Positions 44,626-59,399 are shown, numbered from the stretch's first letter. The stretch is 64,000 nt of DNA from Dehalococcoidia bacterium (GCA_963663235.2 CAXXNO010000004.1:800001-864000); one strand, 5' to 3'. A program made the numbers and translations. The notes: a model not told the origin generated them from the letters alone.

Positions 44626-45774
44626 TCATGGTCGAACGGAGCCGAGCGTACGATCGCCGGCGGTGCGGAAGTGGTCGAGCGCGCGGGGGTCCAGCCGAAC
44701 GCCGAGGCCCGGCTCCGTCGGGACCAGCATACGGCCACACTCAATGCGGAGCGGACGTCCGAGAAGGTCCGAGGCCAGCAGCCCCGCCGTGGCCAGGCCG
44801 CACGGTGGGATCTCCCCCGGCAGCGACGCCGCCAGGTGTAGCGCCGCCGCCGTCGCGACACCGCTGTCGATGGTCGTCGTGACGACAGTGCGCAGGCCCG
44901 CCTCCGCCGCTAGCAGGGCGATCTCGCGGGCGGGCTGGAGGCCGCCCAACGACATCGGCTTGAGGACGAGCACTTGTACGGCCCGGGTGTCGAGAACGCG
45001 CTGGACGGATTCGCGATCGGTGAGGCTCTCGTCGGCCGCGATGGGCACGGCGACCTGCCCGCGCACGGCGCGCAGGCCGCGGAGGTCGGCGGCGGCGACG
45101 GGCTGCTCGACCCACTCCAGGTCATAGGGCTCCAAGGAACGGATGACAGAGACCGCCTGCTCCACGCTCCAGGCGCCATTGGCATCGAGGCGGAGGGCAA
45201 CGTGCGGGCCCAAGGCATCGCGCGCGGCAGCGACCCGATCCCGCGTCGCCGCCGCGTCCCGTTCCATGCCGACCTTCAACTTCACGGCGCGATAGCCCGC
45301 ATTCCGCGCCGCCGAAGCGGCAGCGTGCACATCGACGGGACGGACGGCCCCGACGCTCGCGTTGACCGGGACCGCGGTTGCGGCAGGCGACCCCATCAGA
45401 CCCTGCGCCGCGCTCACGCCCGCCGCCCGCGCCTCGGCGTCGAGCAAGGCGACATCCAGCGCGCACGAAACCGCCGCGCGCCCCGGGCCCTGCGGCACCT
45501 CCGCTACCGCGCGCCGGGCGGCGGCTAGATCGAGGCCAAGGAGCGTCGGGGCCAAGGAGCGAACGATCCCCTCGGCGTGGGCGGCGTCGCCTTCGCCACG
45601 CTCCGGGAGCGGCGAAGCCTCCCCGAGGCCGTCGACACCGGCGTCGGTGTGGATGCGCAGGATCAGGCCCTCGCGCACGGCGGCGACACCGTCGGGTGCC
45701 CCCGCGGTGGCGAACTCCGCGACGAAGGGCAAGCGAAACGGACTCCAGCGGAGACCGATGACGCGCACGGTCAA
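44626..45774 (-). CDS. menC: o-succinylbenzoate synthase
   Basis: GLGEASPLP, KLKVG, LRLDANGAW, EQP, ADES, VLKP; directly follows menD. Confidence 0.88.
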   Translation of the reverse strand: MTVRVIGLRWSPFRLPFVAEFATAGAPDGVAAVREGLILRIHTDAGVDGLGEASPLPERGEGDAAHAEGIVRSLAPTLLGLDLAAARRAVAEVPQGPGRAAVSCALDVALLDAEARAAGVSAAQGLMGSPAATAVPVNASVGAVRPVDVHAAASAARNAGYRAVKLKVGMERDAAATRDRVAAARDALGPHVALRLDANGAWSVEQAVSVIRSLEPYDLEWVEQPVAAADLRGLRAVRGQVAVPIAADESLTDRESVQRVLDTRAVQVLVLKPMSLGGLQPAREIALLAAEAGLRTVVTTTIDSGVATAAALHLAASLPGEIPPCGLATAGLLASDLLGRPLRIECGRMLVPTEPGLGVRLDPRALDHFRTAGDRTLGSVRP

Positions 45775-47558
45775 GCCTCGACATTGCTGTGCAATGCCCC
45801 GCGCACCCGAGCGGCGACCGCCTGCCAGATCTCGCGGTGAAGCGCGGCGTTGGCCGCGCGCTCCGTCTGGACCTCGACCAGTGCCACGCCCGGCTTGCCC
45901 AAGCTCTGGGCCACGGCGTCGCGGAAGTCGGCCGCCCGCCGAACCGGGCGGTGATCGAGACCGTAGAGCGCGGCGGCGTGGCGGAAATCGAGGCCATGCG
46001 GGGTGCCAAAGAGCTGCTCGAAGTCTTCGACCTCGTCAGCCTGCGGGAGGAAGGAGAAGATGCCGCCGCCGTCGTTGTTGATCAGCACGATGGTGGCGTG
46101 AAGGTCGTGGCGCTTCACGGCGAAGAGGCCGTTGAGGTCGTGGTAGAGAGAGAGGTCCCCGATCACCAGCACGAGCGGCCCCGGGCCGGCGGCCGCCGCG
46201 CCCAGCGCCGTGGAGACCACGCCGTCGATGCCGCTGCTGCCGCGGTTGCCCAGGACTCGCAGCGCCCGCGCGCCCCCGTGATAGAAGCCGTCGAGGTCGC
46301 GGACGGGCATGCTGTTGCCAACGAAGAGCGTCGCGCCGTCCGGCAGGAGGTCCGCGAGCTCCGTGAACACCCGCGGCTCGGAGATGCCGTCATCCCGGGC
46401 AAGGAGGTCGCGCTGGACGGCTGCCGTCTCCGCCGCACAGGTCCGCCAGCGGCCGTGCCAGGCCTCGCGCCGCCCGCGGGCCGCCGGGTCAAGCGGCGGA
46501 AGCGCGGCAGTGAGCGCGTCGCAGAGGGCGCGGGCGTCGGCGTGGAGGGCGGTCGAGGCGGCGAGCGTCGGATCGTTCCAGCCTTCGCCGTCGGTAATGA
46601 GCCATTGGGGGCAGGCGGGATCATCGAGGAACTGCAAGAGCGGCTTGGAGGTGGGGGTCGCGCCGAAGCGGAGGACGAAATCCGGCCGCAGCGCCCGGGC
46701 GGTCTCCGCATCGCGGAGAAAGGCGTCGTAGCCGGCGATCACCCGAGAGCGGTCGTGGGGCCCACAACGGACCTGGGAGAGGGGATCGGCCAGCAGTGGG
46801 AGGCCGAGCGTGGCGGCCAGCCAGGCGACCGCTTGCGGAAAGTGTGGATCGGCCTGGGGCCCACAGACGATGAGTCCGCGATCGCCGGCGCTGACGTGCG
46901 CGACGGCAGCCGCGACGGCCTCCCCATCAGGCTGACCGCCGGCATGATGCACCACGGCCGATCGGGGACGCGGTGCGTCCCGATCCGCGCCAGGCGGCGC
47001 GCTGGGGATCAGCGGCTCCCGAAAGGGGAGATTGAGGTGCACCGGCCCGGCCGGCCGGGCCTCCGCGACCGCCACCGCGCGGGCCGCGGTCAGGTCCACA
47101 TAGCGGAGCATCTGCGGGGTGGCCTCCGGCAGCGCGACCTCCACGGAGCGCTTGACCATGGAGCCGAAGAGCCGGATTTGGTCGATCGTCTGATTCGCGC
47201 CGACGTCACGCAGCTCCGGGGGGCGGTCGGCGGTCAGCACGAGCAAGGGCACGCGGCCATAGCGGGCCTCCGCGACCGCCGGGGCGAAGTTGAGCGCCGC
47301 AGTGCCCGAGGTCGAGAGGAGAGCGACCGGCTTGCCGGTCGCCTTGGCGATTCCCAGCGCGAAGAAGGCCGCCGATCGCTCATCGAGATGGACCCAGACG
47401 CGGATCGCGGGGTGGCGTTGGAACTCGAGGGCCAAGGGGGTGGAGCGGGAACCGGGGCAGAGACAGACCTGGGCGATGCCGGCGCGGGCCATCGCATCGA
47501 CGAATGCGCCCACGTATCGATGCAGCACTGCGCCGGGCGCCAGATCCGGGTCGGTCAC
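45771..47558 (-). CDS. menD: SEPHCHC synthase
   Basis: CPGSRSTPLA, DERSAAFFALG, TSGTAA, ADRP, NQTIDQ, NSMPVRD, NRGSSGIDG, GDLS, NNDGGGIF. Confidence 0.97.
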   Translation of the reverse strand: MTDPDLAPGAVLHRYVGAFVDAMARAGIAQVCLCPGSRSTPLALEFQRHPAIRVWVHLDERSAAFFALGIAKATGKPVALLSTSGTAALNFAPAVAEARYGRVPLLVLTADRPPELRDVGANQTIDQIRLFGSMVKRSVEVALPEATPQMLRYVDLTAARAVAVAEARPAGPVHLNLPFREPLIPSAPPGADRDAPRPRSAVVHHAGGQPDGEAVAAAVAHVSAGDRGLIVCGPQADPHFPQAVAWLAATLGLPLLADPLSQVRCGPHDRSRVIAGYDAFLRDAETARALRPDFVLRFGATPTSKPLLQFLDDPACPQWLITDGEGWNDPTLAASTALHADARALCDALTAALPPLDPAARGRREAWHGRWRTCAAETAAVQRDLLARDDGISEPRVFTELADLLPDGATLFVGNSMPVRDLDGFYHGGARALRVLGNRGSSGIDGVVSTALGAAAAGPGPLVLVIGDLSLYHDLNGLFAVKRHDLHATIVLINNDGGGIFSFLPQADEVEDFEQLFGTPHGLDFRHAAALYGLDHRPVRRAADFRDAVAQSLGKPGVALVEVQTERAANAALHREIWQAVAARVRGALHSNVEA

Positions 47559-49015
47559 GGAGCGCCCAGCGCCCAGCGCATCGAGCGCATCTTGAGGCGG
47601 GATTCCTCGTACTCGCTCTCGGCGTCGGAGCCGGCGACAATGCCGCAGCCCGCGTACAGCGAGGCGCGGCCGCCTTCGATCAGCGCGGAGCGAATGGCCA
47701 CGACGAAGTCGCCGTTCCCGCGGGCGTCCATCCAGCCCAGCGGCCCGGCGAACCAGCCCCGGTCGAAGGGCTCGTAGTCGCGCAACAGCGGCAGAGCGCG
47801 CTCACGCGGGACACCGCCCACGGCCGGCGTGGGATGCAGCCGGTCGACGAGATCGAGCGCCGTGGAAGAGCGAGCGAGCGTGCCGCGGAGATCGGTTTGG
47901 AGGTGCTGCACGTCGGGCAGACGCAGGAGGGCCGGCTGCGGCGCCACGTCCAGTTCGATGCAGACGGGCGCGAGTGCGTCCTCAAGCGCGCGGACGACCA
48001 TCGCGTGCTCGCGACGCTCCTTGGGGTCGGCGAGCAGGGCCTGTGCCCGATCCCCATCCTCGACGGCACCGCGGCCGCGCGGAGCGGAGCCGGCGAGCGC
48101 CACCGCACGGACATCGCGACCGCGCAGCGACACCAGCAACTCCGGGGTGGCGCCGAGAAAACAGCGATCACCGTCGGCCAGCGCGAAGACGGTCCCGGCT
48201 CCGTAGCGATCGCGCAGCCGCCGGAGGACGGCGCCGCAGTCGAACGGACGGTCAGCCTCCAAGGTGGAGCGCCGGGCGAGCACCAACTTCTCGATCTCGC
48301 CACGGCTGATGGCAGCGACGATGTCGGTCACGGCCCGCCGCCATGCGTCAGGCGGCGGATCATCCAGCGCGCGCACCTGTGGCTGGGCAACATCGCTGCG
48401 GGCGGAGTCGCCGCCGACCGCGCGGGGCGGACTGCCGGAGAGGAGCTCGTCGACGCGGCAGAGGAGCGGCCCTGGATCTTGCAAGGGGCCGTCCGGCACC
48501 ACCTGGACCTGCACCTGCAAGGAGCAGGCATCGCCGCGGCGGAGCGCCAGCAGGGTGGGAACGACGAGCCAGCCGCGAGGCCAGCCGCTCCAGGTGGCGT
48601 CCGGCGGACGGGCAGGGTCAAACGCCGATCCGCTCAGACAGAGCGGATCCAGGCCGGGCTCAGAACCCGCCGGCTCAACGCAGGCGTCCGCGGCCAGCGC
48701 GCGCCAGGCCGCAGCCATGGAGCCAGGCTCCGGCAGCGGCGCCACGCCGTCGCTGCGGAACTCCGCGCTCGCGCCGACGGCGGCCATCTCGAGGGGCGGG
48801 TCTTGTCGCCGCCAATAGGCGCGTCGATCGCCGGCGGCGCGTTCGAAGATCTCCATCGGTTCGATGGGGGAGAGGGGCACGCTCAGGCTGACCAGCACAG
48901 GCCGGGACGTCCGCGCGGCGCGCTCCGCGGCCGAGTGAATGAGGGCGGGCAAGCGCCGGCCCAGGGTGGCGGGGCCAGGGCCTCGATCTCGCAGGGTCGC
49001 TGGATGTGCTGGCAT
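47555..49015 (-). CDS. menF: Isochorismate synthase
   Basis: KLVLAR, GATPELL, ALAGS, KERREH, LHPTPAVGG, DRGWFAG, YAGCGIV; start placed at ATG 49015. Confidence 0.92.
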   Translation of the reverse strand: MPAHPATLRDRGPGPATLGRRLPALIHSAAERAARTSRPVLVSLSVPLSPIEPMEIFERAAGDRRAYWRRQDPPLEMAAVGASAEFRSDGVAPLPEPGSMAAAWRALAADACVEPAGSEPGLDPLCLSGSAFDPARPPDATWSGWPRGWLVVPTLLALRRGDACSLQVQVQVVPDGPLQDPGPLLCRVDELLSGSPPRAVGGDSARSDVAQPQVRALDDPPPDAWRRAVTDIVAAISRGEIEKLVLARRSTLEADRPFDCGAVLRRLRDRYGAGTVFALADGDRCFLGATPELLVSLRGRDVRAVALAGSAPRGRGAVEDGDRAQALLADPKERREHAMVVRALEDALAPVCIELDVAPQPALLRLPDVQHLQTDLRGTLARSSTALDLVDRLHPTPAVGGVPRERALPLLRDYEPFDRGWFAGPLGWMDARGNGDFVVAIRSALIEGGRASLYAGCGIVAGSDAESEYEESRLKMRSMRWALGAP

Positions 49016-49027
49016 GGCAGAGACGAG

Positions 49028-49049
49028 AAACCGACTCACCAGTCGGTTT
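49028..49049. promoter_or_regulatory. Putative TetR operator AAACCGAC-N6-GTCGGTTT upstream of menF
   Basis: Palindrome with 9-bp arms; same motif at 58558-58579; minus-strand TAGCGT hexamer at 49054-49059. Confidence 0.8.
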
Positions 49050-49134
49050 TGCCACGCTATCAGACGGCCCGGAGCCCACAAGAGGAGGGCAAAAGAGGGC
49101 CAACGAGGGGGCGCCCAGAAGGGTGGGGGCGAGG

Positions 49135-49281
49135 TTAGCGAGGCCGACGCATCGTCACCCGCTGAAAGGCGCGCGCCCGGCGCGCCCGCTGCCGCTTCTT
49201 CCGCCAATCCGCCACGGCCATCGCCGGGTAGAGAACCGATGCGACCGCCACAACGCCGATGCCGATCAACGCTTCCGCCAT
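49135..49281 (-). CDS. 48-aa small single-TM protein with a basic tail
   Basis: MAEALIGIGVVAVASVLYPAMAVADWRKKRQRARRARAFQRVTMRRPR. ATG lies 3 nt after the nfi stop; GAAGGGA RBS-like sequence; below the ORF-track size cutoff. Confidence 0.6.
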   Translation of the reverse strand: MAEALIGIGVVAVASVLYPAMAVADWRKKRQRARRARAFQRVTMRRPR

Positions 49282-49284
49282 GAG

Positions 49285-50001
49285 TCAGCGATCCCTTCCA
49301 CCAATCCGTCCGTGCGGCGGGTGTCCCGTGACGCTGCGGGCCGAGCGGGCGGCCTGCCGCGCCAGGCGGATCGGCGCCGGTGTGCGGGCCGCGCCCGAGA
49401 GAGCGCGCACCACGGTGACGGCGGTCTCCGCGTCCGTGCGCCAAGCGGCGTGTACGGCCAACGGCCGACGGCCCTGCCGCACGCAGAGCCAGCAGCCAAC
49501 TAGATCCCCCAGCAGCCGGAGGGCACTCGTGGCACCGGGCTCATCGGCCGGGGGAGCGCCCTCCGCAAGCAACGGACGATCGGTCACTCCGATCGTCGGC
49601 AGATCGAGCACGGATCCTAAGTGCAGCGCCAATCCGGCGCGGCGGGGATGGTCGCGGCCGGTGGCGTTTACGAGCACGAGGTCCGGCCGCTCCGGCAGCG
49701 CGCGAACGGCCGCCTCCAGCAGAGCGCCCTCCCGCAGCGCCAGAAAGCCGGGGCGGTAGGGGAAGCCCGCGGAACCCGGCACCACGCGCGTGACCAGCGC
49801 GTGACCGTCCAACAGCAGCGCCGCGGCGGCCCAGGCTCGATCGCCGCGTGCGCCGTCGCCCGCGATGCCCCGCTGAAAGCAGACGAAGACACCGGCCCCG
49901 CGCAGCGGCCCCGCCGCGGGCTGCCAGAGGTCAAGGCGCGCGCGGCCGAGATCCGTCTGCAGGCGCAGCAGGCCAGCGTCCGACTGCGGCCAGGTCGCCA
50001 C
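49285..50001 (-). CDS. nfi: Endonuclease V-like protein (atypical catalytic residues)
   Basis: FPYRPGFLALREG, G..HPRRAGLALHLG, PTIGV, P.PIRLA. Confidence 0.82.
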   Translation of the reverse strand: MATWPQSDAGLLRLQTDLGRARLDLWQPAAGPLRGAGVFVCFQRGIAGDGARGDRAWAAAALLLDGHALVTRVVPGSAGFPYRPGFLALREGALLEAAVRALPERPDLVLVNATGRDHPRRAGLALHLGSVLDLPTIGVTDRPLLAEGAPPADEPGATSALRLLGDLVGCWLCVRQGRRPLAVHAAWRTDAETAVTVVRALSGAARTPAPIRLARQAARSARSVTGHPPHGRIGGRDR

Positions 50002-50065
50002 GGCCTCAGGCTATACTCAGCCGCGCCCACAGGCCCCGTCTCCCGCCCGCGAAAGGAGCACGCCG

Positions 50066-50833
50066 ATGCCGGTTCCCGGCGAAGTCACCGATTTGGGGCG
50101 AGTCCAGACAGAGGAGATCCGCTACCCGAGCGAGGACACCGCGATCGAGGCGTACGTGGCGCGCCCGCGTGAGGCCGGCGCGAAGCCGGGGATCATCGTG
50201 ATCCACGAGGCGTTCGGCCCGGTCGAGCACATCCGCGACGTCGCCCGCCGGTTCGCCAACATCGGCTTCACGGCGATCGCCCCGAACCTCTACACGCGCG
50301 AGGGCGCGCCGGACCCCAAGGACATGAACTCCGTCTTCCCGAAGATGTTCGGCCGGCCGGACGCTGAAGTCGTTCGCGACCTGGAGGCAGCGGCCGCGTA
50401 CCTCCGCAGCCAGCCGGACAGCAACGGCAAGGTCGGCTGTATCGGCTTCTGCTCCGGGGGGCGGCAGACGCTCCTCTTCGCCTGTTCCAGCGCGACCGTG
50501 GACGCGGCGGTTGATTGCTGGGGCGGATTCATCAGCCGGGCGACGCAGGAGGACCAGACGACGGCCGCGCGGCCGACGCCGATCATCGACCTCAGCGAGC
50601 AGTTGCACTGCCCGCTCTACGCCGTGATCGGTGAGGAGGACGAGAACCCATCGCCAACCGAGGCGGCGGAGTTGGAGCGGCGGCTGAAGGACGCGGGCAA
50701 GACGTTCCAGGTCGAAGTATTCACCGATGCGGGACACGCGTTCCTGGCCGACTACCGCCCGTCCTATCGGGAGGGGCCGGCGCTCAAGCTCTGGCCGAAG
50801 ATCGTGGCGTTCTTGGAGACGCAGCTACGCTGA
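50066..50833 (+). CDS. Dienelactone hydrolase family protein
   Basis: IHEAFG, GFCSGG, AGHAF; AAAGGAG RBS. Confidence 0.9.
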   Translation: MPVPGEVTDLGRVQTEEIRYPSEDTAIEAYVARPREAGAKPGIIVIHEAFGPVEHIRDVARRFANIGFTAIAPNLYTREGAPDPKDMNSVFPKMFGRPDAEVVRDLEAAAAYLRSQPDSNGKVGCIGFCSGGRQTLLFACSSATVDAAVDCWGGFISRATQEDQTTAARPTPIIDLSEQLHCPLYAVIGEEDENPSPTEAAELERRLKDAGKTFQVEVFTDAGHAFLADYRPSYREGPALKLWPKIVAFLETQLR

Positions 50834-50849
50834 TCCCGGCGTCGCCGGG

Positions 50850-51236
50850 CTATTCCGCCGGCCCGGCGAGAGGGCGCGCGAAGCTGAGCTCGTGGCCGTC
50901 GGGATCAGTGATATGGAAGTAACGCTCGCCCCACTCGGCATCGCGCGGGGCGGTGTCGGGCGTGAGGCCGGCGGCGATGGCCCGCTGGTGGAACGCGTCC
51001 ACGTCTGAGACGTAGAAGATCACACGGCCCCACCACGCCCAGCGACGACTCGCGGGCTGCGCCGTGAGGTTCAGGTAGCCCTGTTCCAGAGCGAAGCTGG
51101 TGAACGAAGCGCGCTCGTCGCCGTAGAGGAGCGCGAATCCCAAGGCGCGATAGAAGTGCACCGCGCGCGCCATGTCATGGGTGGCGAGCGTGAGCGCGCT
51201 GATGCAGTCGATGGTCGGGGCGGGCTCGGGGGTCAC
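50850..51236 (-). CDS. VOC/glyoxalase family protein
   Basis: AVHFYRALGF, WGERYFHITDPDGHELSF. Confidence 0.9.
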   Translation of the reverse strand: MTPEPAPTIDCISALTLATHDMARAVHFYRALGFALLYGDERASFTSFALEQGYLNLTAQPASRRWAWWGRVIFYVSDVDAFHQRAIAAGLTPDTAPRDAEWGERYFHITDPDGHELSFARPLAGPAE

Positions 51237-51308
51237 GCGCGGATGATAGGCGATGGCCGTAGCAGCGTGATCGCCGGACCGGACGTACTGAGCCGGGCAG
51301 CGCCTTCG

Positions 51309-51995
51309 TCAGGCGCCATCGCTCTCCCGTTCGGCGGCGCGGCGGAGGATCTCCATGCAGCGCGCGTCCGGCACCGGGGGGAACTGTTCATAGAAGGCGC
51401 CTACCGCGCCGAACGGGCTCGGGGTGGCGATCACGATCACGCGTGCGCCCATCTGCTCCAGGCGGTGCACGGCCTCCTCGGCGGCAACCGGCACCGCGAC
51501 CAGCACAGCCGCCGCGCCGGCACGCTGCGTCGCGTCCACGGCGGCCGCCATCGTGGCGCCGGTGGCGAGGCCGTCGTCGACGAGGAGGACGCGGCGGTCG
51601 CGCACCGGCTCGGCCGGCCGCGCGTCGCGATAGTCGCGCTCGCGTCGCTCCACCTCGTCCAGCTCGCGGCGTCGCGCCGCCTCCAGGTCGGCGGGACTGA
51701 GGTCGAACATGGCCAGGAAGTCGTCGTTCCAGATCGTGCCCAGGCGGGTGACAGAGCCGACGGCCAGCTCCGGGGAGCCCGGCGCGCCAATCTTGCGCGC
51801 GATCAGCGCATCGAGCGGCAAGCACAGCCCTTGGGCGACCGGCTCGGCGACCTCCAGCCCGCCGCGGGGGATGGTGAGGATGAGGTCCGCCCGCACGTGC
51901 AGGCTGCGGAGCAGGTCCAAGAGCCGTCGGCCCGCGTCCAGGCGATCGCGGAAGCGGACCGGCTCAGAGCGCCGAGGGATGAAGCGACTGAGCAT
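51309..51995 (-). CDS. Phosphoribosyltransferase family protein
   Basis: FRDRLDAGRRL, IPRGG, RKIGAP, VDDGLATG PRPP loop, VGAFY; GGGGAGG RBS. Confidence 0.88.
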   Translation of the reverse strand: MLSRFIPRRSEPVRFRDRLDAGRRLLDLLRSLHVRADLILTIPRGGLEVAEPVAQGLCLPLDALIARKIGAPGSPELAVGSVTRLGTIWNDDFLAMFDLSPADLEAARRRELDEVERRERDYRDARPAEPVRDRRVLLVDDGLATGATMAAAVDATQRAGAAAVLVAVPVAAEEAVHRLEQMGARVIVIATPSPFGAVGAFYEQFPPVPDARCMEILRRAAERESDGA

Positions 51996-52148
51996 CCACG
52001 CCTCCCCATGCCAGCCCTGGAAGAATCGCACGCCGGCGCGCCCTGTGCGCGAGCGAATCAACTAGAACGGCCACAAATAAGGTCGGGAGCGGATGTGTGG
52101 GCCAGCGGTGCATGGATAGCTTGAGCGTGAGACTCGGAACGATCCGGC

Positions 52149-54596
52149 TCAGGATAGGACGGGAGGCCCGTGAGCGCCGTCGTTGCCGGCGGCAGCCAGG
52201 CGTTGCATCTCATCGAGGGCGTCCGCCACGTCGCGGAAGATCGTGTCCTCGGGGTACGTCCCGTCATCGCGGAGGCTCCCGGCGGGCCGGCCAGTGAGCA
52301 GCTCCAGCCCTTCCTCAATGCCGGAGACCTGCCAGATGTGGAAGCGGCCATCGTCGACGGCTTGGACCAGGTCGTCGCGGAGGGTCAGGTTGACGACGTT
52401 GCTGGCGGGCATCATCACCCCCTGGCTCCCCGTCAACCCCACCTCGCAGCAGACGTCGTAGAAGCCCTCCACCTTCTCCGTCACGCCGCCGACCGGCTGG
52501 ATGTTGCCGAACTGGTCCACGGAGCCGGTCACGGCGATGTCCTGCCGGATGGGGACGCCGGCGAGCGAGGTGAGGATGGCGTACAACTCCACCGAAGAGG
52601 CGCTGTCCCCTTCCACTTCGTCGTAGCTCTGCTCGAAGGTGATGCTGGCGGTGAAGGCCAGCGGGCGCTCGCGGCCGAAGACGCCCATGAGGTAGCCGCT
52701 GAGGACAAGCACGCCCTTGGAGTGGATGGCGCCGCTGCGCTCGACTTCGCGGTCGATCGCCACGACGCCACGGCGGCCGAGGCCGATACGGCAGGTGATG
52801 CGCGTGGGAGTGCCCAAGGCGTGGCTGCTCAACTGGTAGACGGCGAGGCCGTTCACCTGGCCGACCACGGCGCCGGAGGTCTCCACGTGCAGCGTCCCCT
52901 CCGCGATCATGCGCCGCAGGCGGTCGGCGACGAGGCCGGAGCGGCGGCGCTTGCCGGCGACCGCGGCGCGGACGTGGGCCGCGGTGACCGTGTCGTGGCC
53001 TTCATCGGCGGCGAGTTGGTCCGCCTCCCCACAGAGGTCCTCGATCGCGCCCAGGCGGGTGCTGAGCCGGTCCTGCCGCCCGGCCAGGCGGGCGCCGAAG
53101 CGCAGCACCTCTTTGAGGGCATCGCGGGTGAGGTGGCGCAGGCCGCGGTGCCGCACGGCGTGGCAGACGAAGCCGGTGTAGGCGGCCAGCGACTCGGCAT
53201 CGACCGGGGTGTCGGGCTCGAACTCGGCGCGGATCTTGAAGAGCGCGGGGAAGTCCGGGTCCATCGCATCCAGGAAGGCGAACGCCATCGGCGAGCCGAC
53301 CAGCACGACCTTGAGGTCCAGCGGGATGGCCTCCGGGATGACGTTGACGGTGGGGATGGGCGTGGAGCCGGCCCCGACGTCCTCCACGCGCGCCTCTTTG
53401 CACTTGAGGCTGCGCTTGAGCTTGAGCCAGGTGCGGGGATCGGTGAGGACGTCTTGGACCTGCAGCACGAGGTAGCCGCCGTTGGCGTGGTGCACCGCGC
53501 CGGGACGGATGAGAGTGAAATCGGTGGTCAAGGCGCCGGCCCGCGGCTCGAAGTCGAGGCGGCCGAAGAGGTTGTAGTAGGTGGGCTGGCCCTCGACCAC
53601 GACCGGCGCGGCGGTGGCCGGCTCGTCGCCGTGGGTGACGAAGAGGTTGACCGTGTAGCGCTTCAGGAGCTGCTCGCGCTGCTCGGTGATCTGCGCCAGC
53701 GGCTGCGGCGGGACGCCATCGGCCTGTGCTTCCGGACGTCGCCGCAAGCCATCGACATTGGCGATGATGTCCGTTTCCACAGCGTCGAAATGCTCGGCCA
53801 ACCCGTGGGGGGCGTACTTCTCCCGGAGGTCATCCAGGATCGGCCCGACCACGAAGCGAGTCACGTCCTTATCCAGCGCGGCGAGCGCCTGTTGCGCCCG
53901 TTGGTCCAGCTTGCGCAGCTGTCGCACGGTGGCGCCCACCGTCTCTTGCACGGTCTTGCCGCCCTGCTCGATGGACGCTTGCATCTCCGGAGGCAGCGAC
54001 TGGATGACTTCGGGCGTTAACGGCTGGCCGTCCCGGTCCTTGGGCATCGCCACAAACCCCATTTGCGTGACGTTCACCAAGTAGCCGAATTGATCGGCGG
54101 TGCGCTGCATGGCCTCCAGGATCTCGCCACGCTCCGTGCCGACCGGCTGCAGCGTTTGCGACCGGCGCTCCTGGTAAGACTCGCTTTCGAAGGCTCGGGG
54201 GACCTCCGTGCGGCAGGCCTCGACGAGCTCGGCGAGGTCGCGCTGCAGATCGTCACCCAGCCCGGAGGGGAGCGCCACGGCGCGCGAGCGGTAGGGGTCG
54301 CGGAAGCTGTAGAGGTAGCACCAGTCGGAGACGGGAGCATTGCCGGCGGCGGCCTCGTTGACCAGCTGGCGCACCGCCATGTTCTTTCCCGCCCCCGGCG
54401 GACCAGAGACGGCGATGTTGTAGCCGTCCGCCTGCACGCGGAGACCGAAGGCGATGGCCTCCTGCGCACGCTGCTGGCCGGCGACCGCCTCGAGCGGTTC
54501 CACGTCCGCCGTCGACGGCGGGAGGTCCGTATCGGCGAACTGAGCGCAAAGCTGATCCGACCGCAGTTGCAGCGAATCCATCACCGTCGTGCTCAC
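52149..54596 (-). CDS. Lon-like protease (LonC-type, AAA-like domain plus Ser-Lys protease domain)
   Basis: GQQRA, GPPGAGK, ANGGYLVL, GQVNGLAV, IHSKGV, EQSY..VEGDSAS, GGVTEKVEGF; GTG start with GAAGGGAG RBS. Confidence 0.88.
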   Translation of the reverse strand: MSTTVMDSLQLRSDQLCAQFADTDLPPSTADVEPLEAVAGQQRAQEAIAFGLRVQADGYNIAVSGPPGAGKNMAVRQLVNEAAAGNAPVSDWCYLYSFRDPYRSRAVALPSGLGDDLQRDLAELVEACRTEVPRAFESESYQERRSQTLQPVGTERGEILEAMQRTADQFGYLVNVTQMGFVAMPKDRDGQPLTPEVIQSLPPEMQASIEQGGKTVQETVGATVRQLRKLDQRAQQALAALDKDVTRFVVGPILDDLREKYAPHGLAEHFDAVETDIIANVDGLRRRPEAQADGVPPQPLAQITEQREQLLKRYTVNLFVTHGDEPATAAPVVVEGQPTYYNLFGRLDFEPRAGALTTDFTLIRPGAVHHANGGYLVLQVQDVLTDPRTWLKLKRSLKCKEARVEDVGAGSTPIPTVNVIPEAIPLDLKVVLVGSPMAFAFLDAMDPDFPALFKIRAEFEPDTPVDAESLAAYTGFVCHAVRHRGLRHLTRDALKEVLRFGARLAGRQDRLSTRLGAIEDLCGEADQLAADEGHDTVTAAHVRAAVAGKRRRSGLVADRLRRMIAEGTLHVETSGAVVGQVNGLAVYQLSSHALGTPTRITCRIGLGRRGVVAIDREVERSGAIHSKGVLVLSGYLMGVFGRERPLAFTASITFEQSYDEVEGDSASSVELYAILTSLAGVPIRQDIAVTGSVDQFGNIQPVGGVTEKVEGFYDVCCEVGLTGSQGVMMPASNVVNLTLRDDLVQAVDDGRFHIWQVSGIEEGLELLTGRPAGSLRDDGTYPEDTIFRDVADALDEMQRLAAAGNDGAHGPPVLS

Positions 54597-54641
54597 GGGG
54601 CGCTCCCTTCCGTGCCGCACCGGCATGGCCCGGCGCTTATT

Positions 54642-56174
54642 CTATCGATTCTCGTTCTGGCGATTCTCTTTCGCGTCCGGAGTCGAGCGGGACAACAGCG
54701 CCCGCAGAACATCACGGCGCAGCTTGCCCGCTGCGTTGCGCGGTAACGCCGCCAGGACACGGATGGCGTCGGGGCGCTTGTACGCAGCCAGGCGCTCCGC
54801 GCAGAAGCGGCTGAGAGCGTCGGTGTCGGCGGAGGCGCCGAGGCGGAGGCAGACAGCCGCGACCGGGCGCTGCCCCCAACGGGCGTCCGCCACGGCGACC
54901 ACCCCCGCATCCACGACATCCGGATGCGTGAGCAACACGGCTTCGACCTCGGCGGGGTAGACGTTCTCGCCGCCGGAGATGATGAGGTCGGCTCGGCGGT
55001 CGAGCACGCGGAGCCCGCCGTACTCATCCAGGGAGCCGACATCTCCGGTGTGGAGCCAGCCGTCCACGACGGTGCGCGCGGTCGCTTCGGGATCGGCGTC
55101 GTAGCCCGCCATCACCGTCGGGCCGCGCACGAGGATCTCGCCCGCTTCGCCCGGCGGCAGATCGACGCCGTCCCGCACGATGCGGATCTCCGTGTTCCAG
55201 AGGGGCCGCGCGGCCCGACGGGCAGAGGGGGACTCCGAGGCGAGGGGCGGGGGCACTGTCGCCACCTGCGAAGCCGTCTCGGTCAGGCCGTAAGTAGGCG
55301 CCACGGGGATGCCGCGAGCGGCGCAGTCGGCGAGCAGCGGCGCCGGGGCGGGACCGCCGCCGAGCAGCGCCAGCCGGAACGTGGGCGGGTAGGGCCGATC
55401 GCCGCGCTCCTCCAGCATCGCGGCCAGCATGCGGGCGACCACAGAGACGATGGTGACGCCGTCGTTGTCGATGGCGCGGTTGGCGGCGGCCGGATCGAAG
55501 GACGCGTGCAGGACGACGGGGATACCGCAGATCACGCTGCGCAGCAGGATCGCCAGGCCGCCGACGTGGTAGAGGGGCATGCAGGCGAGCCAGCGGTCGT
55601 CGTCGTGGAGGCCCAGACTGAGCGCCGAGCCCAAGGCGCTCCAGAGGTGGTTGCCGAAGGTCAACATGGCGCCCTTGGGGCGGCCGGTGGTGCCGGAGGT
55701 GAAGACGATGGAGTGCACAGCGGATTCATCGATGTGGCGTGCGTCGAGGGGGTGAGCGTCGTCGGGCAGGGGGTCCGAGGCCGCCAGGGCGGACAGCGGC
55801 AGGAGGCGCAGGCCATCGCGCCCTCTCGCCAGTTCGTTCCCCAGCGCCGAATGGGCATCGTCGGCGATCAGGAATCGAGCGGCCACGGCGTCGATCTGAT
55901 AACCGAGCTCGGGCGGCATCAGGCGCAGGTTGAGGGGCACGAAGACGGCGCCGAGGCGGGGAACCGCGTGCACGCACTGCACGAGAGCCGGCCCGCTACC
56001 TGCCAGCACGGCGACGCGATCGCCCGGTCGCACGCCTGCAACATCGAGGTGGGCGGTGAAAGCCCGGACCGCCGCGCGTAGCTCGTCGAATGTCCAGCGG
56101 CGCCCGTCCCAGATGAGCGCCGGTCGGTCCGGCGAGCGCAGGACGCGTTGGTCCAGCCAGTCGGGCATGGACAT
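54642..56174 (-). CDS. menE: o-succinylbenzoate-CoA ligase
   Basis: FTSGTTGRPKG, PLYHVGG, TYGLTETASQ, WLHTGD, ISGGENVYP; located in the men operon. Confidence 0.92.
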   Translation of the reverse strand: MSMPDWLDQRVLRSPDRPALIWDGRRWTFDELRAAVRAFTAHLDVAGVRPGDRVAVLAGSGPALVQCVHAVPRLGAVFVPLNLRLMPPELGYQIDAVAARFLIADDAHSALGNELARGRDGLRLLPLSALAASDPLPDDAHPLDARHIDESAVHSIVFTSGTTGRPKGAMLTFGNHLWSALGSALSLGLHDDDRWLACMPLYHVGGLAILLRSVICGIPVVLHASFDPAAANRAIDNDGVTIVSVVARMLAAMLEERGDRPYPPTFRLALLGGGPAPAPLLADCAARGIPVAPTYGLTETASQVATVPPPLASESPSARRAARPLWNTEIRIVRDGVDLPPGEAGEILVRGPTVMAGYDADPEATARTVVDGWLHTGDVGSLDEYGGLRVLDRRADLIISGGENVYPAEVEAVLLTHPDVVDAGVVAVADARWGQRPVAAVCLRLGASADTDALSRFCAERLAAYKRPDAIRVLAALPRNAAGKLRRDVLRALLSRSTPDAKENRQNENR

Positions 56175-56178
56175 GCGG

Positions 56179-57084
56179 CTAGACCAGCAGCCCGGCCGCC
56201 AGCAGCACCCCGAAGAGCAAGTGCAGCTGGCCGGTTTGCTTGAGGATGGGATTCAGGGCGCGGCCCTCGACGCCGCCGACGACGCGCGCCGCGAGCAGCG
56301 CCGCCAGCGGCGCGCTGAGCCAAGCCAACCAGGACCACCAAGGCAGCAGGCCGACGGCGCTGAAGGCGGCGATCAGGACGTAGGGCGCCGTCACGAGCAG
56401 CAGATAGTCGACGCGCGTGGCGCGCGCGCCCAGGATCACGGCCAGCGTGCGCTTGCCGCTGCGACGGTCGGTATCGAGATCGCGCAGGTTGTTGACCACC
56501 AAGATGGCCGTGACCGTCATGCCGATGGGGATCGACGCCGCCAGGGCGCGCCAAGCGAGCTCTTCCGTCTGCACGAAGTAACTGCCGACCCCCGCCGCCA
56601 AACCAAAGAAAACAAACACGAACGGATCGCCCAAGCCGTGATAGCCGAAGGGCCAGGGGCCGCCGGTGTAGGCCAGCGCGGCGAGGATCGCCGCAGCGCC
56701 CAGCACCAGGACCGGCCAACCCGCCACCACGATCAGATAGACGCCGATCAGCGCCGCCGCCGCCAGCACGGCCAGCGTGGCCCAGCGCATCTCGGCAGCC
56801 GAGACCAGACCGCTCTGCGTAGCCCGCTGCGGGCCGAGGCGATCCTCGCGGTCGGCGCCCCGAACGAAGTCTGAGAAGTCGTTGGCGAAGTTGGCGCCAA
56901 CCTGCAACAGCACCGCCGCGCCCAGCGCTGCAATGAACGGCAGCAGGCGCAGCGCAGTGTCCGCATCGGCCGCGGCCGTGCCGACGAGGACCGGAGCGAT
57001 CGCGGCCGTCAGCGTCGCCGGCCGGGCCGCCATCAGCCAGACGCGCCAGGCAGGGACCGAACGCCGAGCCTGCTCGTGTAACAC
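56179..57084 (-). CDS. menA: 1,4-dihydroxy-2-naphthoate polyprenyltransferase
   Basis: RPATL, NFANDFSD, YTGGP..GY.GLGD, VNNLRDLDTD..GKRTL. Confidence 0.95.
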   Translation of the reverse strand: MLHEQARRSVPAWRVWLMAARPATLTAAIAPVLVGTAAADADTALRLLPFIAALGAAVLLQVGANFANDFSDFVRGADREDRLGPQRATQSGLVSAAEMRWATLAVLAAAALIGVYLIVVAGWPVLVLGAAAILAALAYTGGPWPFGYHGLGDPFVFVFFGLAAGVGSYFVQTEELAWRALAASIPIGMTVTAILVVNNLRDLDTDRRSGKRTLAVILGARATRVDYLLLVTAPYVLIAAFSAVGLLPWWSWLAWLSAPLAALLAARVVGGVEGRALNPILKQTGQLHLLFGVLLAAGLLV

Positions 57085-57092
57085 CGGGCGGA

Positions 57093-57911
57093 TCAGGGAA
57101 AGCGGGGGAACTTGGAGAAGTCGGGTTTGCGCTTCTCCAGGAAGGCCCGCTGCCCCTCCTTGGCCTCGTCGGTGAGGTAGTAGAGCAGAGTGGCGTCACC
57201 GGCGAGCTGCTGGAGCCCGGCCAGGCCATCGGTGTCGGCGTTGAAGGCCGCCTTGAGAAGCCGCAGCGCCATGGGGCTTTTCTGGAGGATCTCGCGGCAC
57301 CAGTCGATCGTCTCCTCCTCCAAGCGGTCGAGCGGGACGACGGCGTTGATCAGGCCCATTTCGAGCGCCTCCTGCGCCGAATACTGGCGGCAGAGGTACC
57401 AGATCTCGCGGGCCTTCTTGTGCCCCACGATGCGGGCGAGCAGGGTTGAGCCGTAGCCACCGTCGAAGGAGCCGACCTTGGGGCCCGTCTGTCCGAAGAC
57501 GGCGTTGTCGGCGGCGATGGTGAGGTCGCAGACGATGTGCAAGACGTGTCCGCCGCCGATGGCGTAGCCGGCCACCATCGCGATCACCGGCTTGGGAATG
57601 GTGCGGATCTGACGTTGTAGCTGGAGCACGCTCAACTCGGGCGTGCCGGCATCGTCCACATACCCGCCCTCACCGCGGATGCGCTGGTCCCCGCCGGAGC
57701 AAAACGCTTCGCGTCCCGCGCCGGTCAGGACGACGACGCCGACGTCCAAGTCCAAGTGCGCGCGCGAGAAGGCGTCGCGGAGCTCGGCCAGGGTCTTGGG
57801 CCGGAACGCGTTGCGCACCTCGGGGCGGTTGATGGTGATCTTGGCGATCCCATCGGCGCGCTCATAGAGGATGTCGTCGTAATCGTGCTGCCGTTGCCAA
57901 GCGATCGCCAT
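57093..57911 (-). CDS. menB: 1,4-dihydroxy-2-naphthoyl-CoA synthase
   Basis: [46 protein letters not shown]. Confidence 0.97.
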
Positions 57912-57929
57912 AGGCCGTTCCTTTGCCCC

Positions 57930-58547
57930 TCAGCGCTCCGCCGACACGGTGTCGGTCGCGGCGCCCACGCTGCGCAGGAGGAGGAGGCGTAGCGTGGGAA
58001 AGAGATCCTCCAGCCGCCCCGGGGACGGCGTCAGGAGCCAGCGCGCCAGCACGGCGTTGAGGATGCCGACCCAGGCCTGAGCCGTCACCCCGGTGTCAAT
58101 CGGTTCGATCACGCCATCCGCCACCGCCTGATCCAGCTGCTCCTGAATCACCGCTTCGAATTGTTGCTGGATCACGAGCATGCGCTGATTGAAGCGGGGC
58201 CCGGCTCCCAGCGCTTCGATGGCGAAGACGCGCGCCAGGGTGCGGTGCTTGCCCAGCGTGCGTAGCAGCACCAGCAAGGCCGCCGTGGCTTTGGCGACGG
58301 GGTCGGTTTCTGCGTCCATCGCGGTGCGCAGCTTGCCCATCAGCAGCGTCGCCGTGTGGTCCAGCAGCGCGAACAAGAGCGCTTCCTTGCCGGGGAAGTG
58401 AAAATACAGCCCGCCCTTCGACGTCCCAGCGGTGAGGGCGATCTCGTCGATGGCGGCGTCGCTGTAACCGCGCCGCGCGAAGACCTTTGCGGCCGCGGAC
58501 AGGATCCGTTGCTGGCGATCGCGGGCGCGGGCTTGCTGGACAGGCAT
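57930..58547 (-). CDS. TetR/AcrR-family transcriptional regulator, first gene of the tetR-menB-menA-menE operon
   Basis: RILSAAAKVFARRGY...IDEIA..AGTSKGGLYFHFPGKEAL HTH; start ATG 58547. Confidence 0.92.
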   Translation of the reverse strand: MPVQQARARDRQQRILSAAAKVFARRGYSDAAIDEIALTAGTSKGGLYFHFPGKEALLFALLDHTATLLMGKLRTAMDAETDPVAKATAALLVLLRTLGKHRTLARVFAIEALGAGPRFNQRMLVIQQQFEAVIQEQLDQAVADGVIEPIDTGVTAQAWVGILNAVLARWLLTPSPGRLEDLFPTLRLLLLRSVGAATDTVSAER

Positions 58548-58557
58548 GGATGTGCAA

Positions 58558-58579
58558 AAACCGACTGAGCCGTCGGTTT
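58558..58579. promoter_or_regulatory. Putative TetR operator AAACCGAC-N6-GTCGGTTT between tetR and menG
   Basis: Palindrome; flanked by overlapping -10-like hexamers, TAGCGT (minus, 58585-58590) and TACGCT (plus, 58584-58589). Confidence 0.8.
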
Positions 58580-58646
58580 CAGCTACGCTAGCAAACAGCC
58601 CCGAGGCGAACAAGGCCCTCGTGACGCCGACGGCCCGGGATGGCGC

Positions 58647-59399
58647 GTGTCCGAACCGTCCTCCGACCAGGTGAACGCCCGGCAGATCCAGGCGATGTTC
58701 AGCCGGATCGTGCCGCGCTACGACCGGATGAACCGCTGGATGACCTTGGGGCTGGACGGCCGCTGGCGGCGCGCGGCCGCGCGGAAGGCCGAGCCGGAGG
58801 ATGGCTGGGCGCTGGACCTGGGCGCCGGCACCGGGGACCTCAGCCGCGCCTTGCACCAGGCCGGGGCGCGGCGGGTGGTCTCGGCCGACTTCTCGCGGCG
58901 GATGCTGGTGGCGGGACAGGCCAAGGCGGCAGCGGGGCACCATCGCCAACCGAGCTGGCTGCTGGCCGACGCGCCGGCGCTGCCGTTCGCCGACGACACG
59001 TTCGACGCCGTGGTCAGCGGCTTCTTGCTGCGCAACCTGGTGGACCTCCCCGCGGGCCTGAGCGAGATGATCCGGGTTCTCAAGCCGGGCGGCCGCCTGG
59101 TGGCGCTGGACATTACCCACCCGCCGGCGGGGCCGCTGGCCGCGATTACCCGGGGCACGTTCCACCGGCTGGTCACGCCCCTGGCGGGGCGTTTGAGCGG
59201 CGATCGCGACGCGTATCGCTATCTGGCCGAATCGCTGAGCGGCTTCCCGGAGGCGCCCGCCCTGGCAGCGCTCATCGCGGAAGCGGGCGGGCAGGAGGCG
59301 GGATTCCAGCGGCTGGGCGGCGGCGCCATGGCGCTGCACTGGGCCCGTAAAGCTGCAGGGAGCCCCGGCGGAAGATCACAGGGAAGCCCGGCGGCGTGA
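58647..59399 (+). CDS. menG: Demethylmenaquinone methyltransferase (UbiE/MenG)
   Basis: MFSRIVPRYDRMN, LDLGAGTGD, LPFADDTFD, LRN, RVLKPGG, AYRYLAES. Confidence 0.9.
   Translation: MSEPSSDQVNARQIQAMFSRIVPRYDRMNRWMTLGLDGRWRRAAARKAEPEDGWALDLGAGTGDLSRALHQAGARRVVSADFSRRMLVAGQAKAAAGHHRQPSWLLADAPALPFADDTFDAVVSGFLLRNLVDLPAGLSEMIRVLKPGGRLVALDITHPPAGPLAAITRGTFHRLVTPLAGRLSGDRDAYRYLAESLSGFPEAPALAALIAEAGGQEAGFQRLGGGAMALHWARKAAGSPGGRSQGSPAA

Follow-up and report, generated by a model that had tools for sequence, protein, structure and literature searches.

The window, i.e. the whole stretch of 64,000 nucleotides from a Dehalococcoidia bacterium that was analysed, contains two loci for menaquinone biosynthesis (men). 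Their genes are as follows, with Pfam and NCBIfam scores where these support the name.

57930 to 58547, minus strand: tetR, a 205-aa TetR-family regulator, first gene of its operon (Pfam TetR_N and TetR_C_24)
57093 to 57911, minus strand: menB, 1,4-dihydroxy-2-naphthoyl-CoA synthase (NF005637, 498 bits, cut-off 380)
56179 to 57084, minus strand: menA, DHNA polyprenyltransferase (NF004751, 333 bits, cut-off 264)
54642 to 56174, minus strand: menE, o-succinylbenzoate-CoA ligase (TIGR01923, 367 bits, cut-off 330)
52149 to 54626, minus strand: LonC-like protease gene (Pfam AAA_32, LonB_AAA-LID, LonC_helical and Lon_C)
58647 to 59399, plus strand: menG/ubiE, demethylmenaquinone methyltransferase, divergent from tetR (TIGR01934, 184.8 bits, cut-off 158; PF01209, 163 bits)
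47555 to 49015, minus strand: menF, isochorismate synthase (TIGR00543, 317.6 bits, cut-off 224.75)
45771 to 47558, minus strand: menD, SEPHCHC synthase (TIGR00173, 486.7 bits, cut-off 244)
44626 to 45774, minus strand: menC candidate, enolase-superfamily o-succinylbenzoate synthase (MR_MLE_C, 202 bits, and operon position)

The men gene identities of the original prediction are borne out by Pfam and NCBIfam. The set menF, menD, menC, menE, menB, menA and menG is complete under the two putative operators described below, and six of these seven genes score above curated cut-offs. The exception is menC, whose best NCBIfam match, the OSBS model NF002782, gives 158 bits against a cut-off of 288, and which falls below every OSBS cut-off; it is a candidate by enolase-superfamily membership and operon position. 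When the men gene set was checked with Pfam and NCBIfam, neither a menH nor a DHNA-CoA thioesterase was recognised. The gap between tetR and menB is 18 nt, and both menD with menF and the menC candidate with menD overlap by 4 nt. The LonC-like protease gene begins 15 nt past menE on the same strand and may, with some uncertainty, belong to the tetR operon as its last gene. The menG frame that holds the methyltransferase domain begins at GTG 58647; ATG 58640 was rejected as a start, since it sits in a different frame from this domain.

Each locus carries one perfect copy of the same palindrome.

58558 to 58579, no strand: operator 1, the 22-bp palindrome AAACCGAC-N6-GTCGGTTT, between tetR and the divergent menG
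49028 to 49049, no strand: operator 2, AAACCGAC-N6-GTCGGTTT, upstream of the menF start

The palindrome has a perfect 8-6-8 shape; its CCGAC and GTCGG cores are spaced by 11 bp from centre to centre, which is close to one turn of the helix. It is found where it had been placed earlier, 12 nt upstream of menF (ATG complementary to 49013-49015) and 10 nt upstream of tetR (ATG complementary to 58545-58547). The pattern AAACCGACNNNNNNGTCGGTTT matches the window at these two places with 0 mismatches each, and a scan of the window allowing up to 3 mismatches gives no match beyond them. None of 100 window shuffles contains at least two matches. In the whole genome (2,754,989 bases, 68.4% G+C), the same two sites are again the only perfect copies. 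One further genome site has 2 mismatches and eight have 3, the latter count being equal to that of the backwards-read control; no sites above background were found in the genome scan other than at the two men promoters. Nor is the motif frequent in related genomes, as 58/61 genomes of the family have 1 or 2 sites, while the backwards control has 0 or 1.

Both copies lie next to sequences that resemble promoters.

58585 to 58590, minus strand: -10-like TAGCGT of the predicted tetR operon promoter, 5 nt from operator 1, conserved as TAnnnT
49054 to 49059, minus strand: -10-like TAGCGT of the predicted menF operon promoter, 4 nt from operator 2, conserved as TAnnnT
58584 to 58589, plus strand: -10-like TACGCT facing menG, overlapping the tetR -10 as the heptamer TACGCTA/TAGCGTA

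These three hexamers were all noted in the original prediction and are present as described. At tetR, the hexamer is accompanied by a TG at 58592-58593 and, with a spacer of 17 nt, by a -35-like TTGTTC at 58608-58613, which gives a predicted transcription start at about 58578, inside operator 1. The corresponding elements at menF are a TG at 49061-49062, a -35-like TTGTGG at 49076-49081 and a spacer of 16 nt, with a predicted start at about 49047, inside operator 2. No Shine-Dalgarno-like sequence was seen between operator and start codon at either site.

The proposal that TAGCGT serves as a -10 element is supported by conservation. TAnnnT occurs 1-8 nt upstream of the palindrome at 39/40 sites, compared with 1/40 on the mirror side (tetR sites 26/27 vs 0/27, menF sites 13/13 vs 1/13), and at 18 of the 27 tetR sites it is preceded by TGn. 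Chloroflexota-wide, the figures are 58/77 loci vs 2/77. However, neither the tetR nor the menF site is called as a promoter by a simple scan for the sigma-70 consensus; TAGCGT agrees with TATAAT at only 3/6 positions and the -35 elements are weak. The two-way heptamer TAnnnTA, found in 20/22 loci with a divergent menG but in 0/13 menF sites, supports, less directly, that menG would be co-regulated; operator 1 would span about -38 to -17 of the predicted menG promoter. In three loci (L024, L029 and L031) the menG ATG lies 6 nt past the reverse-strand hexamer.

Within the family the arrangement is well kept. TetR orthologues exist in 24/24 relatives, and tetR-menB-menA with a divergent menG is found in 23 of the 24 loci examined, the 24th stopping inside tetR. 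These genomes are related and not independent, so that such ortholog and site counts overstate the statistical support. A palindrome with at most 2 mismatches occurs upstream of tetR in 27/30 loci, 24-101 nt from the predicted tetR start, and in all 12 relatives whose second perfect site was examined, this site is upstream of menF-menD. This second site is often more than 1 Mb from tetR. In four genomes (G005, G009, G015 and G020) it lies 1.06-1.75 Mb away on the same contig, so control must act in trans. Five one-site genomes were tested (G002, G007, G014, G018 and G024), and they contain no MenF and no MenD. TetR also co-occurs with MenB: it is present in 29/29 MenB-positive relatives and absent from 9/11 MenB-negative ones.

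How the palindrome varies bears on whether it acts as DNA or as RNA. As RNA, each copy would fold into a hairpin with 9 bp and about -12 kcal/mol (z-scores -3.2 and -3.1), and the predicted starts would put most of the palindrome into the transcript. It could then act mainly as a hairpin at the 5' end of the tetR and menF mRNAs, with an effect on stability, translation or attenuation, and not as a DNA site for a protein. However, the 32 unique sites have 32 distinct spacers, i.e. the would-be loop always differs, while the arms are conserved in sequence without covariation: 11 of these sites have a change confined to a single arm, as in the GTCGGATT arm of genus g7, and none has a double change that keeps a pair. 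No terminator-like site was called by the scan at the tetR or menF site, the palindrome co-occurs with TetR, and the half-site spacing fits a DNA site of the FadR type. We regard a role as RNA as extremely improbable.

The association extends to the wider Chloroflexota. Orthologue loci adjoin men genes in 77/80 cases, 61 of those being ordered tetR-menF-menD. At two orthologue loci (L025 and L091) no men gene lies within the flanks of 1.5-3 kb on each side, and in three other families tetR heads a single cluster in which menB is reached about 5 kb downstream. The core CCGAC-N6-GTCGG is present upstream of tetR with at most one mismatch in all 77 evaluable loci (exact in 70, one mismatch in 7). 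Where the TetR orthologue is missing, the core is no commoner than its backwards control (2/9 vs 6/9 genomes). Both the synteny of tetR with men genes and the retention of the motif upstream of orthologs, which the original prediction had put forward as checks, thus hold in the family and across Chloroflexota.

These counts also bear on which protein uses the site and how. The genome has other TetR paralogues (2 further weak matches), and in one relative (G030) a paralogue has a similar palindrome nearby, so a different regulator could bind the palindrome; alternatively, the adjacent TetR could activate transcription. Both versions appear highly unlikely. The site is directly upstream of tetR in every evaluable locus and gains nothing over the control in genomes without the orthologue, which argues against another regulator. 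Against activation, the site starts 2-8 nt past the -10 and covers +1, which is the position of a repressor; the repressor MbdR of Azoarcus sp. CIB likewise has footprints that span the transcription start, from +18 to -16 (PMC4424350).

The protein itself has the features of its family: an N-terminal HTH (Pfam TetR_N PF00440, residues 15-61, 59.5 bits, cut-off 24), a match to an all-helical C-terminal ligand/dimerisation domain (TetR_C_24 PF17932, 29 bits, cut-off 26.4) and the palindrome near its own promoter. It contains no cysteine. In full-length alignments with TetR proteins of solved structure, residues 8-192 are covered. The best solved match over both domains is FadR of Bacillus subtilis and Bacillus halodurans, with E about 1e-30 to 1e-31, the closest relatives in full-length profile searches being 5gp9 (8.4e-31), 1vi0 (9.5e-31) and 3whb (2.4e-30). 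From an Arg-to-Ala difference between 5gp9 and 5gpa at the position numbered R117 in the paper, we infer that 5gp9, 5gpa and 5gpc are the entries of a published FadR study (PMC5397183). MbdR (PDB 4uds) also matches, with E 1.1e-12 from the single sequence and 1.4e-21 from the profile. G45 and Y48, invariant in 60 TetR orthologues, correspond in the alignment to G42 and Y45 of B. halodurans FadR, which contact bases.

In spite of this similarity, the protein is not classified as a FadR. Against the NCBIfam FadR model (NF053878) it scores 67.9 bits, with a cut-off of 200. In an alignment of low identity, indicative only, 0/6 CoA-anchoring residues are identical, with R116, N120, R150, R153, E162 and Y174 of B. 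subtilis FadR aligned with N120, L124, G153, A156, A165 and G177. The hydrophilic patch of B. halodurans FadR has five residues, none of which is kept in TetR, again in a low-identity alignment. Operators at fatty-acid degradation genes would be expected of a FadR, but genome sites above background occur only at men promoters. An assignment as a ScbR-type autoregulator receptor (NCBIfam NF041196) was also rejected, with 83 bits against a cut-off of 150.

MbdR and PaaR are aromatic acyl-CoA-responsive TetR repressors. The homology of TetR points to sensors of acyl-CoA, although TetR does not keep the residues that anchor CoA. The tetR operon encodes the enzymes that make OSB-CoA and DHNA-CoA. 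Our best guess, and a tentative one, is that the effector is an aromatic men intermediate, either DHNA or one of OSB-CoA and DHNA-CoA. Release by a pathway intermediate would result in positive feedback on menF-menD-menC, an unusual logic for biosynthesis.

Two other readings of the response can be considered. In one, with the same operator and regulon, TetR would sense long-chain fatty acyl-CoA or another general lipid signal in the manner of FadR, and would couple membrane-lipid status to quinone synthesis instead of sensing a men metabolite. The acyl-CoA-binding FadR proteins are the nearest full-length solved relatives, and 7/8 hydrophobic cavity positions of B. halodurans FadR are also hydrophobic in TetR (by a low-identity mapping). 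The family score, the lack of all six CoA anchors, the confinement of genome sites to men genes and the phylum-wide linkage of tetR with men all count against this, and we find it unlikely.

The other concerns the direction of the response. Ligand-strengthened DNA binding occurs in the TetR family, for example in DesT, and TetR could be a holo-repressor whose binding is strengthened by the end product or a late intermediate, namely DHNA or the head group of a (demethyl)menaquinone, giving classical end-product repression and not induction. Such feedback logic fits a biosynthetic pathway, and in two bacteria DHNA is already reported to act on MenD as a signal of allosteric feedback (PMC9835592, bioRxiv 10.1101/841569). 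However, most characterised TetR proteins, FadR and MbdR included, are released by their ligand, while the sequence does not separate the two modes. This reading is about as improbable as that of a lipid sensor.

For the repressor and its operators, we suggest the following mechanism. A TetR dimer would bind AAACCGAC-N6-GTCGGTTT, which begins 4-5 nt past the TGnTAGCGT extended -10 of the tetR and menF promoters and would cover roughly -2 to +20 of both. This would prevent formation of the open complex or escape from the promoter at tetR-menB-menA-menE and menF-menD-menC until a small molecule releases the repressor. From operator 1 the same bound protein would also cover the -35/spacer region of the back-to-back menG promoter. 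A single tetR-menF-menD... operon with one operator is the usual form of the men genes in Chloroflexota, while in the family studied here the men cluster is split, each part with its own operator. Site rarity, conservation and synteny point in the same direction as the regulon that was originally predicted, and it is quite probable that TetR (57930-58547) is a repressor dedicated to the classical men pathway and subject to autoregulation, with this operator and regulon.

Several known systems resemble parts of this arrangement. In the QacR type, two TetR dimers bind long palindromes at overlapping offset sites. Distant orthologues have 26-bp palindromes made of two N6 units that are shifted by 4 bp against each other, and binding of the QacR type could plausibly apply to these; the 22-bp site in the window, in contrast, has a single N6 unit. 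A structural parallel for the DNA site is FadR, which binds 16-bp inverted repeats with 6-bp half-sites 4 bp apart, two repeats being offset by 4 bp (PMC5397183). This layout (6 bp + 4 bp + 6 bp) is the same as in CCGAC-N6-GTCGG, the 4 bp offset is repeated in the 26-bp operators, and in its recognition helix TetR retains the base-contacting Gly and Tyr, namely G45 and Y48. The half-site sequence differs, however, and the FadR regulon is for fatty-acid degradation and not for men biosynthesis.

MbdR is a parallel for the regulatory layout. It is described as a TetR-family, cluster-specific repressor with one palindrome at several pathway promoters including its own, released by 3-methylbenzoyl-CoA, an aromatic CoA thioester and the first pathway intermediate (PMC4424350). 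It is a sequence relative of TetR, and both the reading as a cluster-specific repressor and the sharing of a palindrome among pathway promoters, including that of the regulator, are common to the two. The MbdR pathway is, however, catabolic and its operator is ATAC-N10-GTAT, while here the pathway is biosynthetic and the operator another.

No dedicated TetR-type regulator of the men pathway was found in our literature search. Apart from the allosteric feedback of DHNA on MenD in Mycobacterium tuberculosis and Staphylococcus aureus (PMC9835592, bioRxiv 10.1101/841569), it returned no control specific to menaquinone synthesis. In that feedback, as proposed here, an intermediate of the men pathway serves as the signal, but the target is enzyme activity and not transcription, and no DNA-binding protein is involved. 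The tetR gene and its conserved palindrome look like a dedicated on/off switch of the menaquinone (vitamin K2) pathway in many Chloroflexota, not described before. It can be speculated, with some hesitation, that TetR is the first example of a transcription factor which is dedicated to the classical men pathway and senses a metabolite, that it is conserved with its operator throughout Chloroflexota, and that it responds to a naphthoate-type intermediate (DHNA, DHNA-CoA or OSB-CoA). If so, a transcriptional loop would set quinone synthesis in addition to MenD allostery, and TetR would be a ready-made natural sensor for DHNA, DHNA-CoA or OSB-CoA.

The original prediction placed a single palindrome at two men promoters, and AAACCGACNNNNNNGTCGGTTT is indeed found at both of them, at 49028-49049 and at 58558-58579, with 0 mismatches. 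No further match at up to 3 mismatches exists in the 64-kb window, and two matches were seen in 0 of 100 shuffled sequences. The two men units, whose genes were assigned with Pfam and NCBIfam models, and their neighbours are organised as follows.

57930-58547, minus strand: tetR, first unit
57093-57911, minus strand: menB, first unit
56179-57084, minus strand: menA, first unit
54642-56174, minus strand: menE, first unit
58647-59399, plus strand: menG/ubiE, divergent from tetR (Pfam and NCBIfam)
47555-49015, minus strand: menF, second unit
45771-47558, minus strand: menD, second unit
44626-45774, minus strand: menC candidate of the enolase superfamily, second unit
52149-54626, minus strand: LonC-like protease gene, same strand as menE and starting 15 nt behind it
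51156-52124, plus strand: ORF of 322 aa between the men units, no Pfam family
50006-50737, minus strand: ORF of 243 aa between the men units, no Pfam family
43018-44595, minus strand: alpha/beta-hydrolase ORF, about 30 nt after menC

The genes of tetR-menB-menA-menE are separated by gaps of 4-18 nt, all on the minus strand, while the stops and starts of menF-menD-menC, on the same strand, overlap. On the other side of tetR, the frame encoding the methyltransferase domain of menG begins with a GTG at 58647. The stretch between the two units holds an endonuclease V gene, the two family-less ORFs and the LonC-like protease gene. The latter may be co-transcribed with menE, i.e. lie on a putative TetR-controlled transcript, and the alpha/beta-hydrolase ORF might take the place of MenH (SHCHC synthase); no MenH model matched it in the NCBIfam search. 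The men linkage of the hydrolase is absent in the other genera examined and that of the LonC-like gene is inconsistent among relatives, and both are therefore placed outside the regulon core. In genus g5 (loci L036 and L038), the menF operator likewise has a LonC-like homologue nearby.

Scanning the complete genome (2,754,989 bases in 14 contigs, 68.4% G+C) bears out that the motif is rare: both perfect sites genome-wide are those in the window, one site has 2 mismatches and 8 have 3, a level at which the motif read backwards also gives 8 sites. The sole other near-match, G000:C12:41143-41164 (positions 1501-1522 of fetched locus L003; 2 mismatches), is flanked by the 3' end of a Cache-domain gene and by a transposase-type HTH gene; as an operator it was rejected as probably a chance match.

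TetR orthologues are present in 24/24 genomes of the same family at 40-68% identity, and as related genomes share ancestry, these and the following counts measure conservation and are not independent tests. The expected tetR-menB synteny was recovered in 23 of 24 loci of relatives, with tetR followed by menB and a divergent menG opposite, and with menA after menB wherever the locus extends that far; the remaining locus, L020, is cut off within tetR. Upstream of tetR the palindrome is conserved with 0-2 mismatches in 27 of 30 loci (including the window's own), at 24-101 nt from the predicted tetR start. Allowing at most 1 mismatch, the motif occurs in 58 of the 61 family genomes, once in 42 and twice in 16, while the backwards control gives none in 57 and one in 4.

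Fifteen relatives have two sites, and all except G045 were included in the examination of the second site. In the 12/12 relatives fetched, a second perfect site is located just upstream of menF-menD, followed by menC wherever the locus extends that far. In G008 and G062 the second site has 1 mismatch and no men genes within 4 kb; both were treated as chance matches. In four genomes (G005, G009, G015 and G020) a single contig carries both sites at a distance of 1.06-1.75 Mb, and therefore the shared motif is not a local duplication, which implies a trans-acting factor.

Five one-site genomes from three genera of the family (G002, G007, G014, G018 and G024; 97-99% complete; loci L049-L053 and L119-L123) contain no MenF or MenD above threshold, the best MenD-model score being 83.5 bits versus a cut-off of 244. 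These genera retain tetR-menB-menA and the divergent menG, which looks like a partial pathway needing outside o-succinylbenzoate or a different early route. The count of operators thus goes with that of men transcription units.

The regulator also follows the pathway. MenB is above cut-off in 29 of 40 relatives, and a TetR orthologue is found in 29/29 of these, while it is missing in 9/11 MenB-negative relatives. The two exceptions are G031, with a 40%-identical TetR copy without a men neighbour, and G040, a genome that is 71% complete and in which tetR adjoins menA. Of the 9 genomes lacking an orthologue, 2 contain the 12-base core and 6 its backwards control.

Among the matches listed, the closest public relatives are metagenome bins that carry the label Chloroflexota or Dehalococcoidia. 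With a single-protein query, men genes adjoin 38/44 full-length-type matches, and contig ends truncate 5 of the 6 loci that lack this linkage. A single cluster led by tetR, with menB about 5 kb downstream, is found in three further families of the class. The signature SKG[GA][VL]YFHF, taken from an alignment of 60 TetR orthologues (A1), matches at least 581 stretches in species-representative genomes. Among the best 80 of these loci, 77 have tetR adjoining men genes on the same strand, as tetR-menF-menD (52), tetR-menF-menD with a divergent menG (9), tetR-menA (6), tetR-menB-menA (5) or in other arrangements (5); in the 3 loci without men genes, less than 800 nt of sequence follows tetR. Conservation of the operator upstream of orthologues extends equally far, as the core CCGAC-N6-GTCGG is located at most 170 nt 5' of tetR in 77/77 evaluable loci among the best 80, exact in 70 and with one mismatch in 7. 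In many distant orthologues the palindrome is 26 bp long, AAnCCGACyGAC-N2-GTCrGTCGGnTT, i.e. two N6 units with a 4-bp offset.

In five genomes from other families, the 12-base core is present at tetR in 3/5; G030 and G027 each deviate from it by one base in their operators, and the 12-base-core matches there lie elsewhere. The second-operator rule did not repeat in the five genomes outside the family that were scanned for it (reached through loci L145, L188, L185, L097 and L129). An 11-base core was not selective enough there, as its backwards control gave similar numbers. The one extra full palindrome, in G077, with no men genes within 1.5 kb and without A/T flanks, was rejected.

Two further observations concern the distribution of the regulator. 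G030 contains a paralogous TetR (G030:C1:763463-763642), 52% identical over the helix-turn-helix, with an ACCGAC-N6-GTCGGT palindrome about 370 nt upstream (G030:C1:763093-763110); it is possibly a sister regulator with a related operator. Further, a Chloroflexota-type tetR is found in seven bins labelled Enterobacteriaceae, Rubrobacter, Deltaproteobacteria or Armatimonadetes (L128, L131, L135, L144, L084, L089 and L091), with men genes beside it in all except L091. Mislabelling of the bins or movement of the cassette could account for this.

As RNA, the palindromes are predicted to form hairpins of about -12 kcal/mol. However, no two of the 32 unique sites share a spacer, and changes affect only one arm in 11 of them, with a pair-keeping double change in 0. 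One whole genus has GTCGGATT on one arm versus AAACCGAC on the other. The variable spacers, one-arm changes and asymmetric arms argue for DNA that would be recognised sequence-specifically by a protein.

The palindrome is identical on both strands, and thus each flank can act as a control for the other. On the gene side, a TAnnnT ending 1-8 nt before the palindrome is present at 26/27 tetR sites and 13/13 menF sites; on the mirror side it is found at 0/27 and 1/13. A TGn precedes this hexamer at 18/27 tetR and 4/13 menF sites. Phylum-wide, among the best 80 loci, TAnnnT is present in 58/77 versus 2/77 on the mirror side, often in near-consensus form (TACAAT, TATAAT, TAAGAT).

The predicted local geometry agrees with the sequence at both sites. 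The ATG of menF (complement of 49013-49015) is 12 nt from the palindrome and that of tetR (complement of 58545-58547) 10 nt, minus-strand TAGCGT hexamers occupy 49054-49059 and 58585-58590 (4 and 5 nt from the palindrome), and the TACGCT facing menG lies on the plus strand at 58584-58589. The following promoters are predicted.

tetR promoter, minus strand: TTGTTC-17-TGcTAGCGT, start predicted near 58578
menF promoter, minus strand: TTGTGG-16-TGaTAGCGT, start predicted near 49047

From the positions of these elements, both predicted starts fall within the operators; for menG, on the plus strand, a start is predicted near 58596. A simple consensus promoter scan calls neither, so the assignment rests on conservation only, and a terminator scan at both sites found nothing. 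The two-way form TAnnnTA (the hexamer plus A) is present in 20/22 loci with a divergent menG versus 0/13 menF sites. In L024, L029 and L031 a reverse-strand TACTGT or TAATGT hexamer precedes the menG ATG by 6 nt, which would imply a leaderless menG mRNA there, with the operator over the -35 region.

The mechanism proposed from these sequences is itself the textbook one for a TetR repressor, acting through a palindromic operator. What is new, as far as checked, is men as the target pathway and the phylum-wide conservation. The full-text literature searched yielded no TetR or other dedicated men transcription factor, and an earlier prediction in RegPrecise or in subscription journals is possible. 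The pathway-specific control found in the search, in the excerpts available, is allosteric inhibition of MenD by DHNA. The retrieved passages of a 2025 study (PMC12421875) call the regulation of the bacterial quinone level poorly understood and mention no repressor, TetR or operator. A candidate cluster-encoded regulator and operator found phylum-wide would give a direct handle on the signal switching menaquinone synthesis, an example in which to study how cofactor biosynthesis is controlled at the transcriptional level in the Chloroflexota, a little-studied phylum, and a candidate sensor part for engineering production of vitamin K2 or DHNA. Orthologues exist in the cultured thermophiles Thermomicrobium sp. 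CFH 73360 (L097) and Thermalbibacter longus CFH 74404 (L185), and therefore biochemistry is feasible.

TetR has the Pfam domains TetR_N and TetR_C_24 and contains no cysteine, so thiol-based quinone sensing was rejected. No NCBIfam cut-off is reached, the best scores being 83 versus 150 (ScbR-type) and 67.9 versus 200 (FadR). Against solved structures, the best full-length profile matches are FadR proteins, 5gp9 (8.4e-31), 1vi0 (9.5e-31) and 3whb (2.4e-30), followed by 5k7f, 4uds (MbdR) and 6o6n.

According to the sections drawn on, these relatives FadR and MbdR both sense CoA thioesters, in MbdR an aromatic one, and the men operon encodes the enzymes making OSB-CoA and DHNA-CoA. By analogy, we tentatively suggest that an aromatic men intermediate might be the effector. 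A general acyl-CoA or lipid signal, as in FadR, appears unlikely: 7/8 hydrophobic cavity positions of FadR are still hydrophobic in TetR, but the six CoA-anchoring residues of B. subtilis FadR align with N120, L124, G153, A156, A165 and G177, and the five hydrophilic-patch residues of B. halodurans FadR are also not kept, all in a low-identity alignment. Co-repression, in which TetR would act with the pathway end product, seems similarly improbable.

With regard to operator design, the sections used of PMC4424350 describe for MbdR one palindrome at several promoters, including its own, over the start sites. The likeness to FadR, as far as the portions used of PMC5397183 describe it, extends to the predicted DNA contacts. 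There, G42 and Y45 of B. halodurans FadR contact bases, and they align with G45 and Y48 of TetR, which are invariant in the 60 orthologues of A1. A FadR monomer reads a 6-bp repeat, and two of these, 4 bp apart, form the 16-bp inverted repeat bound by the dimer; CCGAC-N6-GTCGG likewise spans 16 bp. Finally, two FadR dimers bind two 16-bp inverted repeats with a 4-bp offset, and the 26-bp operators of the distant orthologues show this same offset.
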